DNA of 64,000 nt from Patescibacteria group bacterium (GTDB taxonomy: Bacteria; Patescibacteriota; Patescibacteriia; Veblenbacterales; UBA10138): assembly GCA_018817715.1 (NCBI GenBank), contig JAHITT010000006.1:218804-282803 (forward strand). The letters are read 5' to 3'. Under the pieces are notes generated by a model. The model saw only the letters and a list, made by a program, of their open reading frames with translations, had not been told where the DNA came from and ran no database searches. The translations under genes and the position numbers were made by a program. Positions 49,978 to 61,353 of the stretch are shown here, in pieces (within the stretch, counting starts at the first letter, position 1; the number at the start of each line of letters is the position of its first letter).

Positions 49978-50363
49978 TGGTGGAGGTGACGGGGATTTGC
50001 ACCCCATGTCTAGCTACTAAGACAATATATTGGCTCCAGGTTCAGTACCGCTAAGTACCAAAAACGAATCAAGCGGTACCAAAGTTCGTTTTTGGATTGC
50101 CTTGAATTATCAAATCATTAAACGCAAGACAAACGCTTAACAATCGGCCCGATAAATGACATTCCCTTAGATTATCAGACATGTGTCCAAAGGAACGGCT
50201 AAAGCTTAATTAAGCTAAAGCTGGCGCAAAATTCAAAGAAGCAAAAGCTCCCTTAAACTTGCTGACAAATGACTTGGCATTTGTAAGAGTGCGATTTTTT
50301 ACGAGACCCGCCACTCGACCTGCTAACATATCACTTAATAACTATCGAATTGTAAACACCCCC
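49978..50363 (-). ncRNA. ssrA: tmRNA (SsrA)
   Basis: Minus strand 5' GGGGGUGUUUACAAUUCGAUAG... and 3' ...GGGGUGCAAAUCCCCGUCACCUCCACCA. A 7-bp acceptor stem pairs GGGGGUG with CACCUCC (one G-U), with T-arm and encoded CCA. Internal tag ORF GCC AAG UCA UUU GUC AGC AAG UUU AAG GGA GCU UUU GCU UCU UUG AAU UUU GCG CCA GCU UUA GCU UAA encodes (A)KSFVSKFKGAFASLNFAPALA*. CUCGUAAAAA precedes the tag region as in E. coli tmRNA. smpB is adjacent. Confidence 0.8.
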
Positions 50364-51615: not shown

Positions 51616-51842
51616 GGAACCACACAACTTAACAACTGTGATATCTCTCCATACCCATCCAGTCTGCCATGCGACATCCGCCGAAGCTAACTTACGTTTA
51701 TAGCTGGCAACTAATCCACACCACCTTCACCCACTTCCTTAACTAAAGAGCGTTTTTAGACGGAGGCGGATAAATATTCAACATTTTAAGATATCCTAAC
51801 CTCATAGCCACCTTATCGCCAAAGCTCTTAAAAACTTGCTTG

Positions 51843-51878
51843 CGGGGATTTATGTCCACGTGGACATAAATCCCCGCA
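51843..51878. repeat. 36-bp perfect palindrome (18-bp arms, CACGTG centre)
   Basis: gcggggatttatgtccac|gtggacataaatccccgc. T-runs occur on both strands just outside it (aaaggcttttta on plus; aagcaagttttt on minus), so it could act as a bidirectional terminator or a dimeric-protein binding site. Confidence 0.7.
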
Positions 51879-51910
51879 AAGGCTTTTTACCATATAACAA
51901 GTGTTCTTTT

Positions 51911-51990
51911 GTCATTGCGAGGGAGCACAACGACCGAAGCAATCTTAAATCAGATTGCCACGTCGGCTTTACAATCTCCTCGCAATGACA
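51911..51990. repeat. Hairpin repeat, family member A (12-bp perfect inverted arms around a 55-nt loop)
   Basis: gtcattgcgagg (51911-51922) ... cctcgcaatgac (51978-51989). The loop contains a second stem, gcaatct-taaatc-agattgc. The arm core GTCATT-GNGAG resembles the 26-mer family below. Confidence 0.6.
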
Positions 51991-52601: not shown

Positions 52602-52630
52602 ATCATACACCCAAAACCGCCTTTTGTCAA
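52602..52630 (-). promoter_or_regulatory. Sigma70-like promoter for gene 52076-52546
   Basis: Minus strand TTGACA (plus tgtcaa 52625-52630), 17-nt spacer, TATGAT (plus atcata 52602-52607), about 55 nt upstream of the ATG at 52546. Confidence 0.45.
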
Positions 52631-52765: not shown

Positions 52766-52793
52766 TTGACAAAATCAACAGTTATGCTATGAT
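52766..52793 (+). promoter_or_regulatory. Strong sigma70-like promoter with extended -10 (divergent from the previous one)
   Basis: TTGACA (52766-52771), 16-nt spacer, tgcTATGAT (TG at 52785-86, -10 at 52788-52793). Drives transcription toward the hairpin repeats and the signal-peptide protein gene. Confidence 0.5.
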
Positions 52794-52839
52794 ATAACGT
52801 TACAGTTTTTTACTCTAGAACCTTAAAAAATAGTTGCTT

Positions 52840-52926
52840 GTCATTCTGAACAAAGTGAAGAATCTTATATTTGTTATTTTTGTATATTGCTTAAATTTAG
52901 AGATCCTTCGCTACGCTCAGGATGAC
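52840..52926. repeat. Hairpin repeat, family member B (26-nt inverted arms, 34-nt loop)
   Basis: gtcattctgaacaaagtgaagaatct (52840-52865) and its inverted partner agatccttcgctacgctcaggatgac (52901-52926). 20/26 complementary plus G-U pairs. Confidence 0.65.
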
Positions 52927-52950
52927 AAATACTAATAAACAATAATAAAG

Positions 52951-53055
52951 CCCGGTGTTGGCAGGTTTAACTACCCCGTCGACGGGTAGTGTTTTTATGA
53001 ACCTGCCAGGCGTCGCCGGGTATAAAATTCAAAAGCAGACTGCGCCGTCTGCAAC
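52951..53055 (+). promoter_or_regulatory. GC-rich structured leader / attenuator-like element upstream of the beta-barrel-like gene
   Basis: Nested stems ggcaggtt...aacctgcc enclosing the palindrome ctaccccgtcgacgggtag followed by tgttttta (terminator-like), then a second stem gcagac-tgcgcc-gtctgc (53036-53053), directly before RBS AAGGAG (53058-53063). Confidence 0.4.
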
Positions 53056-53069
53056 ATAAGGAGTACAAA

Positions 53070-53600
53070 TTGAAAAATCTACTAACAACCATCGTCGTCA
53101 TCTTTTTGATGACTGTATCCGTTTTTGCTCAAACAAAAACGGATAAGGCTATCCGATTTTATCCCAGCTACATATTTGTGGCTGGTGTACGCGCACATAA
53201 CGGACCCGGCTTGGTAATTTCCTTGCCAGGAGAAACCGGCAAATTCCGCGTAATGTTTTTTGCCAAATCTCTAGCTTGGGGCGTTTATGAAGAACGAGGG
53301 CTAGGTCTTGAATATTCTAAGTTATTAAACCAACCCACTGACAACCCTCGGTACCGTATTACTGGTGGTACAATCTACAGCGTCGAAAATCTATATGGTG
53401 ACGCTAGGTTGCCGGAAAAAATGTTAACCCTATATTGCGGCGGAAGCATGGTGTACGATATAACTTCATTCTTAACAACTGAGGTCGTACTGGCACCAGC
53501 ATTTACCACTCTGGTGAGTTTACCATCGGATTATTGGTTCCGTACGGATGGCTCACAATTTGGTTTATCCGGACGTATCGCTTTCAGGTTTAAAATGTAA
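53070..53600 (+). CDS. Secreted beta-barrel-like protein (OmpX/OmpW-like small outer-membrane-protein architecture), TTG start
   Basis: TTG at 53070, 6 nt after AAGGAG. Signal peptide MKNLLTTIVVIFLMTVSVFAQ-TK. Alternating hydrophobic/aromatic beta-strand pattern throughout, C-terminal ...GRIAFRFKM. GC markedly higher than the genome background. Confidence 0.55.
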   Translation: MKNLLTTIVVIFLMTVSVFAQTKTDKAIRFYPSYIFVAGVRAHNGPGLVISLPGETGKFRVMFFAKSLAWGVYEERGLGLEYSKLLNQPTDNPRYRITGGTIYSVENLYGDARLPEKMLTLYCGGSMVYDITSFLTTEVVLAPAFTTLVSLPSDYWFRTDGSQFGLSGRIAFRFKM

Positions 53601-53657
53601 AAAGGAAAAACAGTAAAAATAATTAAATAATTAAAAACCAATTAAAAAGGTGACAAA

Positions 53658-54437
53658 ATGACTAACCTTGAAATAATATTAATCGTAATTGCAAGTTCTT
53701 TGGTAATGTCTGGTTTAATCGGCCTAGCAATTTATCTTACACGCCGACAAAACCAAGACGATCTTAATAACACCAATCCTTGCCACGGACCATTACCAGT
53801 ACCCAACTCAAATATACACATACCGGAACAAAATATTCCATTAACAGCCTGGCTAAATATGTGCAACAGAAGACGTATGCCAGTTTGGGGATGGTTCATG
53901 ATTGGATTATTATTTGTTCTAACCGTTGTATTTTTATCATTATTTACTTTGGGCAACCAAACATCAGCCACTAACACTGAAAAACCTGAAGCTGTCACTA
54001 CTATCAATACTCCAGTTCCGGCACCATTACCTGTTCCACAATTTCCAAATGATTATGCAAAAAAAGCCGACGTTGATTCTGCAACAGCAAAAATAACCGG
54101 TGCGATATCGCAACATGATAAAAACTTAACTGACCACCGTCAATCTTCCGGCCGCGGATACGCCGCTGCCAAAAAACAACGCGAAGAAATTCTCACTGTT
54201 GTTAATGCAAATGGCGGTAAATTAGACAACATCTCAAAACAAGTCGCTGACCTTGACGCCAGTATCACCTTACTTAGGGGCGAACTCATCATAATGGTAG
54301 ATGAATTAAAAACCGCACTAGCCGATTCATCTACTACCCAAAAAATCAATTCCTTAACGGACGAAATTAACCAGCTCCGTTTACGAATTGAAACTTTGGA
54401 AAAACAAAAAAATAATCTAGTCGGCGACCCCGATTAA
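53658..54437 (+). CDS. Hypothetical membrane protein with Pro-rich linker and C-terminal coiled-coil
   Basis: 259 aa, two TM helices (IILIVIASSLVMSGLIGLAIYL; VWGWFMIGLLFVLTVVFLSLFTL), a PxP-rich segment (TPVPAPLPVPQFP), then heptad-like ...LDASITLLRGELIIMVDELKTALADS...INQLRLRIETLEKQKNNL. Confidence 0.5.
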   Translation: MTNLEIILIVIASSLVMSGLIGLAIYLTRRQNQDDLNNTNPCHGPLPVPNSNIHIPEQNIPLTAWLNMCNRRRMPVWGWFMIGLLFVLTVVFLSLFTLGNQTSATNTEKPEAVTTINTPVPAPLPVPQFPNDYAKKADVDSATAKITGAISQHDKNLTDHRQSSGRGYAAAKKQREEILTVVNANGGKLDNISKQVADLDASITLLRGELIIMVDELKTALADSSTTQKINSLTDEINQLRLRIETLEKQKNNLVGDPD

Positions 54438-54459: not shown

Positions 54460-54493
54460 AGAGACTGCTCACAAGGCAGTCTCTATTTATTTA
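54460..54493 (+). terminator. Intrinsic terminator of the 53070-54437 transcription unit
   Basis: 9-bp stem agagactgc / gcagtctct with loop tcacaag, then atttattta. Confidence 0.5.
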
Positions 54494-54511: not shown

Positions 54512-54582
54512 AGATTCTTCGCTACGCTCAGAATGACGTTAGACAGTCATCCTGAACGAAGCGCTAGTGAAGTGAAGGATCT
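54512..54582. repeat. Hairpin repeat, family member C (26-mer plus inverted partner, 8-nt loop)
   Basis: agattcttcgctacgctcagaatgac (54512-54537), identical to the copy at 54908-54933 and 24/26 to the copy at 52901-52926. Partner gtcatcctgaacgaagcgctagtgaagtgaaggatct (54546-54582). Confidence 0.7.
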
Positions 54583-54584
54583 CG

Positions 54585-54866
54585 CTATTCAATTAAATCT
54601 CTAAATTCCGGATTAATCGTTTTAATTAAATCTATTTTTCTTTGCCTAGTCCAACCTTTTATTTTCTTTTCTACAGTAATAGCCTGCTGTGGCGAACTAA
54701 ACTCTTCAAAAAAGACTAATTTATTTACTTTATATTTATTGGTAAATCCAGGCACTAACTTATTCTTATGTTCATGCATCCGCCTATCTAAATTATTAGT
54801 CACTCCGGTATACAAAACCGTATTGCTTTTATTAGTAACAATATACACATAACAACGTTTAATCAT
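54585..54866 (-). CDS. GIY-YIG nuclease-superfamily small protein (YhbQ/UPF0213-like)
   Basis: 93 aa. CYVYIVTN...VLYTGVTNNLDRRMHEHKN contains the GIY, YIG, conserved Arg and Glu positions of the GIY-YIG fold. Flanked on both sides by identical 26-bp direct repeats. Confidence 0.8.
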   Translation of the reverse strand: MIKRCYVYIVTNKSNTVLYTGVTNNLDRRMHEHKNKLVPGFTNKYKVNKLVFFEEFSSPQQAITVEKKIKGWTRQRKIDLIKTINPEFRDLIE

Positions 54867-54907: not shown

Positions 54908-55044
54908 AGATTCTTCGCTACGCTCAGAATGACAATGAAAATAAACGCAACGAAGAATAATAATAAAAATATAATACAGCTTAAAATGACAACAAAAAAA
55001 CCTGGCTCAGAATGACGACACAAATAAACGTGACTAAGAATGAC
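54908..55044. repeat. Hairpin repeat, family member D plus degenerate partial copies
   Basis: agattcttcgctacgctcagaatgac (54908-54933), degenerate partner ...cgcaacgaagaata (54945-54958), then partial cores aaaatgac (54984-90), gctcagaatgacg (55005-17), actaagaatgac (55033-44). Confidence 0.6.
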
Positions 55045-61251: not shown

Positions 61252-61326
61252 GGGCTCGTGGTGTAGCCCGGTTAACACGTCTCCCTGTCACGGAGAAGAT
61301 CGCCGGTTCGAATCCGGTCGGGCCCG
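61252..61326 (+). tRNA. tRNA-Asp (anticodon GUC)
   Basis: Manual cloverleaf: acceptor GGGCTCG/CGGGCCC (one T-G), U8, D-stem GTGT/ACAC, anticodon stem TCTCC/GGAGA with loop CTGTCAC (GTC), T-arm GCCGG-TTCGAAT-CCGGT, discriminator G. CCA is not encoded. Confidence 0.85.
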
Positions 61327-61353
61327 CTTAGTACGTAAAACCAAAAAAAGGTT

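Follow-up and report, generated by a model that had tools for sequence, protein, structure and literature searches.

What does a long, highly structured and untranslated stretch of RNA do when it separates a strong promoter from the genes that follow: is it a small RNA (sRNA) in its own right, a switch, or a working part of the mRNA behind it? The question is raised by positions 52766–53069 of a 64,000-nucleotide (nt) stretch of DNA from a Patescibacteria group bacterium (contig JAHITT010000006.1, positions 218,804 to 282,803; hereafter the window), for which an initial annotation had proposed either a stable sRNA or a riboswitch/attenuator acting on the downstream gene. Here, alignment and folding of orthologous loci suggest another answer. 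Two hairpins in the 3′ half of this leader, termed HP2 and HP3, appear to be selected as + strand RNA structures whose stems are kept by compensatory change, and our leaning, held with moderate confidence, is that the region is a promoter plus a cis-acting 5′ untranslated region (UTR) module for the stability, processing or translation of a two-gene operon. We consider it unlikely to be either a free-standing sRNA with a conserved terminator or a ligand-sensing riboswitch.

The leader begins at a sigma-70-type promoter that was the best promoter-like site of a 3-kb scan (52766–52793, + strand), with hexamers matching TTGACA/TATAAT at 11 of 12 positions, a spacing within the 16–18 nt range and the optional TG of an extended −10 element (−35 TTGACA, 52766–52771; 16-nt spacer; TG, 52785–52786; −10 TATGAT, 52788–52793). 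Judging from the promoter's position, transcription would start at about 52799–52802, ~7 nt past the −10 hexamer. The leader runs for ~270 nt from the promoter to a TTG start codon at 53070–53072 (+), which is preceded by an AAGGAG ribosome-binding site (RBS) at 53058–53063 (+), and a terminator-like hairpin 3′ of the second gene (54460–54484, +; 10-bp stem AGAGACTGCT/GGCAGTCTCT) probably marks the transcript 3′ end.

To place this leader in context, we compared it with the contigs encoding the same 176-aa protein family as its first downstream gene, which together yielded five distinct leaders with structure and a sixth (L011) that is short and unstructured. The window sequence recurs in L003, L004 and L005; with the distinct leader of L009 it makes up what we call type A. 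Type B comprises L001, near-identical to L012 and L013, and L002, which equals L006. L010 and L011 are more distant relatives. Promoter hexamers, spacing and TG are the same in all five distinct structured leaders (window, L009, L001/L012/L013, L002/L006 and L010); L011 has its own TTGACA-17-TAAGAT and is the sole locus that lacks the shared promoter. RBS and TTG/GTG start are kept across types A and B. The promoter is thus present in the form first described, ~270 nt before the start codon, and is kept in orthologues.

The description of the leader as highly structured likewise held. The 276-nt leader of the window folds at −89.2 kcal/mol compared to −55.8 ± 4.6 kcal/mol for dinucleotide shuffles (z = −7.3, none of 200 as low), its 3′ half alone gives a z of −4.9, and the orthologous leaders fold likewise (z of −5.9 to −9.2). 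Separate folds of the window, L009, L001 and L002 return the same order of modules: a 5′ box, a first hairpin (HP1), HP2, a linker and HP3, the last standing just 5′ of the RBS.

HP2 (52950–53021, +) is predicted to fold as a GC-rich rod of three tiers, in the minimum-energy and centroid structures alike. Its outer stem (52950–52957/53014–53021) is followed by a 3′ bulge, GCGT; its middle stem (52958–52969/52998–53009) by a 3′ internal loop, GTTTTTA (52991–52997); and its inner stem, ACTACCC/GGGTAGT (52970–52976/52984–52990), is closed by the loop CGTCGAC. A single-stranded, A/U-rich linker of 13 nt, ATAAAATTCAAAA (53022–53034, +), leads to HP3 (53035–53052, +; GCAGAC-TGCGCC-GTCTGC), a 6-bp GC-rich hairpin. 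The initial annotation had this last stem abutting the RBS; it is indeed present, ending 5 nt 5′ of AAGGAG, and the RBS is not included in it and stays locally unpaired. The fold shared by the single-sequence predictions has an outer stem of 8–10 bp, a 3′ bulge of 4–6 nt, a middle stem with GGCA/UGCC, an asymmetric internal loop, an inner stem of 7–8 bp with a loop of 6–7 nt, then the linker and a 6–7-bp hairpin that ends 5–6 nt 5′ of the RBS.

Sequence conservation of this module is high within types and low between them. The 103-nt HP2–HP3 block is 95–96% identical within a type and 56–62% identical between types, and the linker is nearly invariant (92–100% identical in all type A/B pairs); a linker-like sequence, ACAATTCAAAC, is present even in L010, which lacks HP2 and HP3. 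Between the window and L009 the block is 96% identical, with four changes in 103 nt that are all compatible with pairing, whereas housekeeping DNA reaches ~74% and the region of the protein gene that encodes the mature product 57%, and many insertions and deletions separate the two leaders in the HP1–HP2 spacer. The same holds for L001 and L006 (95% for the block versus ~80% for housekeeping DNA). Such patchy conservation fits constraint on HP2–HP3 better than it fits a single recent transfer tract.

A covariance model built from type A only (the window and L009) recovered type B at the orthologous site with 43 bits in L006 and 30–32 bits in L001/L012/L013 (E-values of 3e-8 to 5e-5), and found nothing else in 98 kb searched on both strands, the whole window included. 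In the resulting alignment 94–96% of cells pair, compared to 32–45% when partners are slid by 1–3 columns, and 15–16 of the 33 pairs are changed on both sides between the types. Double changes affect six of eight pairs in the outer stem of HP2 and five of seven in its inner stem (three C-G to U-A, two A-U to G-C), and all cells of both stems pair; in HP3 two of six pairs are changed on both sides and one on one side (G-C to G-U), again with every cell paired. G·U pairs outnumber A·C mismatches by 12 to 2 in the model alignment, an excess which argues that the pairing acts in RNA of the + strand, the strand transcribed from the promoter, and not in its complement. The element thus sits on the coding strand, 3′ of a conserved promoter and 5′ of the start codon, and the covariation against homologous upstream regions that the initial annotation had suggested looking for is there: the stems of HP2 and HP3 are kept across types A and B by compensatory changes, in what is effectively one A-versus-B split in a model-fitted alignment.

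Several observations weigh against this interpretation. The comparison rests on five distinct sequences in two types, so that the double changes amount to essentially one event of divergence, and the alignment used to count pairs was fitted to the model structure. The ~40% difference between types is large given the stasis within them at comparable genome distances (genome identity is ~74–80% within types and ~70% between). The transcript 5′ end is not predicted to carry a well-supported terminal hairpin, the only 5′-terminal pairing predicted being a long-range helix with the RBS region. The apical loops are palindromic (GTCGAC in type A and CGCG in type B HP2; GCGC in type A HP3), which an RNA hairpin does not require and which hints at DNA-level processes such as template switching. 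During replication, template switching can create and repair hairpin stems in single events (PMC8794818), and part of the apparent compensation could come from this mutation process and not from selection. Finally, L010 and L011 carry the same gene in the same synteny and lack both HP2 and HP3: L010 retains the promoter, the 5′ box, an HP1-like hairpin and the linker-like sequence, and the leader of L011 is short and unstructured. The module is therefore a clade-specific gain or loss and dispensable for expressing the gene family.

Alternatively, HP2 and HP3 could be selfish or mutation-made DNA palindromes that by chance lie in a transcribed spacer, of the kind of miniature inverted-repeat transposable elements (MITEs) or repetitive extragenic palindromic (REP) sequences or products of template switching, with no role in expression. 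Apparent compensatory changes can arise by template switching (PMC8794818), HP2 is GC-rich (50%) within an AT-rich spacer and palindromic through its centre, as palindromes made at the DNA level would be, both hairpins are missing from two loci, and HP1 belongs to a promiscuous repeat family. However, no second copy of HP2–HP3 was found in the window, the fetched loci or the genome collection: an exact 30-mer of HP2 found no match in the genome collection, matches of a 17-mer of HP2 to viral contigs are chance matches that lack the hairpin and in which the covariance model finds nothing, and a type B 18-mer had no match. The hairpins also differ between types on either side of a retained 13-nt linker, pointing to change in place and not to independent insertions; the strand-specific excess of G·U over A·C is what RNA would leave; and the block is, within each type, far more conserved than the flanking spacer or housekeeping genes. 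We regard this explanation as doubtful. An integron attC-like site, an imperfect palindrome with RYYYAAC and GTTRRRY at its ends, was considered separately and rejected: GTTTAAC occurs in the 5′ strand, its partner is TGAACC and not GTTRRRY, and no integrase lies nearby.

Returning to HP2 as an RNA structure, its inner stem and the run of T that follows could be an intrinsic terminator, either ending a stable sRNA of ~170–190 nt or attenuating the beta-barrel gene downstream. Type A sequences do carry GTTTTTATGA (window) or GTTTTATAAA (L009) directly 3′ of the 7-bp inner stem, both flagged as terminator-like, the T-run itself reading GTTTTTA in the window and GTTTTA in L009. During transcription the polymerase would release the inner hairpin and U-run while the 3′ halves of the middle and outer stems had yet to be made, so that a degree of termination is physically possible in type A. 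Type B, on the other hand, has no U-run (CUCUCACAA in L001/L012/L013 and UUCUUACAA in L002/L006, where the stretch after the inner stem is CTCTCAC or TTCTTAC, CUCUCAC or UUCUUAC as RNA) yet keeps the rest of the architecture. The would-be terminator stem has only 7 bp and a 7-nt loop, the stretch behind it is, in every sequence, the 3′ strand of an internal loop within a rod that extends beyond it, the fold analysis found no antiterminator pairing that would compete with the rod, and L010 and L011 have no terminator-like element. The inner palindrome and T-run are thus real and terminator-like in type A, but with the T-run missing from type B an sRNA of ~170 nt ending there is not supported as a conserved feature of the locus, and termination at HP2 is unlikely to be what the element is for.

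A ligand-sensing function fares worse still. A long 5′ UTR directly 5′ of the RBS, with covarying stems and a conserved single-stranded linker, would suit a riboswitch in which HP2, the linker and HP3 form an aptamer with its expression platform at the RBS. However, the unpaired parts of the two hairpins (apical loops, bulge, internal loops) are not shared by the two types, leaving the linker as the only kept unpaired segment and no candidate for a conserved binding pocket; HP2 is a plain rod that lacks a multi-stem junction; and HP3 does not sequester the RBS, no mutually exclusive pairing with terminator or RBS having been found. Rfam 15 identified only transfer-messenger RNA (tmRNA; 49978–50363) and tRNA-Asp in the window at the gathering score, the leader itself gave only noise (on HP1) at E ≤ 10, and four orthologous loci were likewise without a match. 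We therefore consider the riboswitch that was first proposed to be highly improbable. Nor does the leader appear to encode a peptide: its small open reading frames (ORFs; 33–44 aa) are repeat-derived or not conserved, and a leader peptide was rejected on the grounds that every frame of HP2–HP3 holds stop codons in at least one type.

Pairing between the two ends of the leader offers one further form of switch, in which the 5′ end (CAGUUU..UACUCU) would pair with the RBS and start (GGAGUA.AAAUUG), closing the leader into a ring that blocks translation until the helix opens, and the linker would serve as a ribosome standby site. Minimum-energy folding does predict this closing helix for the window, L009 and L002/L006, and the pairing probability of the RBS is 0.77–1.0 in all leaders. 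Shuffles of the 5′ segment nevertheless give near-equal RBS pairing (mean 0.70–0.77), with only L009 above all shuffles; the start codon is less paired in L006, L001 and L010 than in the shuffles; L001/L012/L013 rely on a different, weaker partner; and RNAalifold yields no conserved pairs in the 5′ segment across leaders. The effect is mostly compositional, a U-rich 5′ end meeting an A-rich 3′ end, and we judge such a switch very unlikely. The 5′ segment does hold a conserved sequence, seen in the alignment as far out as L010: the 5′ box CGTTAyAGTTTTTT...GAACnTTAAAAA (52798–52831, +), which has no consensus fold and could act at the DNA level, within the first transcribed nucleotides, or as unpaired RNA.

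HP1 (52838–52928, +) seems to be of another nature. It consists of two inverted units of ~27 nt with arms at 52840–52865 and 52901–52926 around a 35-nt loop, in the position where the initial annotation had placed a 26-nt-arm hairpin. The consensus of the unit is (GA)GATyCTTCGCTnCGCTCAGrATGACA, and its 25-nt arm, GATyCTTCrCTnhGyTCAGrATGAC, has four copies in the window versus none expected by chance, with partial copies besides. Two of the four lie outside HP1, at 54513–54537 and 54909–54933, around a 93-aa GIY-YIG gene. Beyond the window, the exact 21-nt arm pattern matches at least 120 IMG/VR contig stretches with at least 149 units, on carriers whose GC content runs from 0.32 to 0.71 and, among the matches listed, as solo, tandem or inverted copies that are mostly intergenic and show no strong orientation bias. 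HP1 is thus made of a dispersed palindromic repeat with many copies at unrelated sites. A literature search for the unit gave only primer coincidences and no description.

At the leader itself, HP1 holds the same position in all type A and B loci with arms 88–100% identical, its loop length varies between L009, L006 and the window, L001/L012/L013 have an insertion of ~90 nt in the loop, and L013 has an additional insertion of ~25 nt within the left arm. In L010 the corresponding place is taken by another perfect hairpin, which has only TTCTGAAC in common with HP1. Because the unit is promiscuous and the loop is unconserved and takes insertions, HP1 is best seen as a generic, insertion-tolerant repeat pair, which leaves the hairpin in place and removes its suggested role as a gene-specific riboregulator. 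By its sequence it would still form a very stable RNA stem.

Other observations concern the same repeat. One is its near letter-for-letter identity, short as it is, across contigs of widely different GC. Further matches to the unit fall within 54513–54581 and 55005–55016, and the GIY-YIG gene (93 aa, 54585–54866, minus strand) sits between inverted units at 54546–54581 and 54909–54933 as if in an HP1-like loop. A link between GIY-YIG genes and the unit was rejected, given that the GIY-YIG gene of L009 lacks such flanks and that none of the 120 listed viral loci has a GIY-YIG homologue. Also rejected was an invertible segment, in which the left arm of HP1 and the unit at 54513–54537 would bracket the operon: the downstream unit occurs only in the window's lineage and is missing from L001, no recombinase is present, and independent assemblies share one orientation. 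Upstream of the promoter, a hairpin of a related repeat subfamily occupies 51910–51990 (arms TGTCATTGCGAGG and CCTCGCAATGACA), and a GTCATCC...GGAATGAC hairpin upstream of the L010 promoter resembles it.

What, then, would the leader do for the genes behind it? A post-transcriptional role is most likely. In the mechanism we propose, the strong extended −10 promoter would drive a leader composed of the 5′ box, HP1, the ~72-nt HP2 rod, the linker and HP3, in which the stable hairpins flanking a single-stranded linker would shield the mRNA from 5′-end-dependent or endonucleolytic decay. HP2 and the linker may in addition mark a site of processing or factor binding, either as an RNase III-type duplex or by cleavage of, or binding to, the linker; a cut in the linker would place HP3 at the new 5′ end, as a protective hairpin beside the RBS. 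With an exposed strong RBS and a weak TTG/GTG start, the module would set the level of a highly expressed envelope protein.

The two-gene unit that the leader precedes spans 53070–54437 (+). Its first gene (53070–53600, +) encodes a predicted secreted or envelope protein of 176 aa with a signal peptide and a predicted 8-stranded beta-barrel. Translation from the TTG at 53070 yields a complete signal peptide, of which gene calls at an internal ATG drop 13 residues. The second gene (53658–54437, +) encodes a 259-aa protein that is hydrophobic over a stretch near its N terminus and weakly matches Pfam families of coiled-coil type. The 176-aa family is tiny, with four clusters at 50% identity among 1.84 billion representative proteins (three found by a word-based search and the fourth by profile). 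All loci that extend far enough show synteny, with SmpB and tmRNA close by, L001 and L002 being short contigs. Scans of the genome collection found no relatives, and a single metagenome scan returned only the L002/L006 lineage.

Alleles are also swapped at the 176-aa gene. Between L001 and L012, identity is 97% in the leader and 97% once more far downstream, but blastn aligns nothing between their beta-barrel genes, and identity at the start of the next gene is down to 82%. On its 5′ side this divergent segment begins right at the start codon. Two protein allele classes, with ~36–41% amino-acid identity between them, each occur behind each leader type (type A with class 1 in the window and with class 2 in L009; type B with class 1 in L001/L006 and with class 2 in L012/L013), which indicates that leader type tracks lineage while the coding cassette is exchanged. 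As a separate observation, the points at which contigs break here (at the start of L001 and the ends of L007 and L009) are consistent with strain-level polymorphism.

A more specific proposal, which we think rather unlikely, is that HP2, the linker and HP3 are a new, lineage-restricted cis-regulatory RNA read by a co-evolved trans-acting factor (a protein, RNase or RNA) that sets expression of this allele-swapping 8-stranded beta-barrel protein, which resembles an outer-membrane protein (OMP). A co-evolved factor would explain 95–96% conservation within a type alongside a 40% difference between types. Patescibacteria are usually described as having no outer membrane, and if the proposal were true a lineage-restricted RNA would control an OMP-like beta-barrel in a group so described.

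The surroundings of the leader, in a window that is AT-rich, hold other features that we record here. A divergent promoter, TTGACA-17-TATGAT (52602–52630, minus strand), serves an upstream gene for a 156-aa membrane protein, and is ~93% identical in L009 though the 156-aa product is poorly conserved between lineages. At 51840–51879 lies a perfect 40-nt palindrome (TTGCGGGGATTTATGTCCAC/GTGGACATAAATCCCCGCAA) that is terminator-like on both strands. Between it and an AT-rich region, 51620–51830 has a higher GC content (~0.41) and no called ORF, and may represent the remains of a gene or an RNA that has escaped annotation. Farther downstream, the tRNA-Asp gene (61252–61327) is bracketed by a 20-nt inverted repeat, 95% complementary (61239–61258/61319–61338), which, as read from its sequence, would lengthen the acceptor stem in the precursor.

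Gene regulation in Patescibacteria (the Candidate Phyla Radiation, CPR), which are mostly uncultured, is little known, and the leader offers a concrete conserved unit with covariation support. It precedes what appears to be a major, rapidly exchanged envelope protein. It is a specific target for metatranscriptomes and a candidate expression/stability cassette, and it illustrates how a promiscuous repeat unit has become fixed within an mRNA leader. At present its wider importance is modest, the element, whose role is a proposed one, being confined to a few metagenome lineages.

Among known systems, the leader adds a narrowly distributed example to the structured cis-acting 5′ UTRs, a known kind of element. 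PMC2777011, citing Emory, Bouvet and Belasco 1992 and Arnold, Yu and Belasco 1998, describes E. coli ompA mRNA as stabilised by elements of its 5′ UTR. Like that stabiliser, the leader is a long 5′ UTR before a gene for a (here predicted and apparently abundant) 8-stranded beta-barrel envelope protein, its stable hairpins alternate with A/U-rich single strands, and the RBS lies in the last single-stranded segment. Unlike it, the Patescibacteria leader is twice as long, has no well-supported hairpin at its 5′ terminus and bears no sequence or Rfam relationship to it, so that a stabilising effect is proposed here by analogy. Intrinsic terminators and sRNAs derived from 5′ UTRs are matched by the type A inner stem and U-run, which fit the simple consensus, but not by type B, which does not keep the U-run, nor by the embedding of the stem in a longer rod. 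REP sequences and bacterial interspersed mosaic elements (BIMEs), Correia elements (NEMIS) and other miniature palindromic repeats are co-transcribed into UTRs and form hairpins in mRNAs. HP1 resembles REP/BIME and Correia elements as an inverted pair of a short, dispersed and mostly intergenic unit; it differs from REP and MITE families in that its unit is near-identical across contigs of GC 0.32–0.71, far beyond the host range of any named family, and in that no target-site duplication or link to a transposase was found for it, and HP2 and HP3 differ from them in being single-copy as searched. Hairpins processed by RNase III, finally, occur in bacterial and phage leaders such as those of rnc, pnp and T7 R1.1, and with ~27 stacked pairs and asymmetric bulges in a 5′ UTR the predicted HP2 rod would have the typical geometry of such a substrate.

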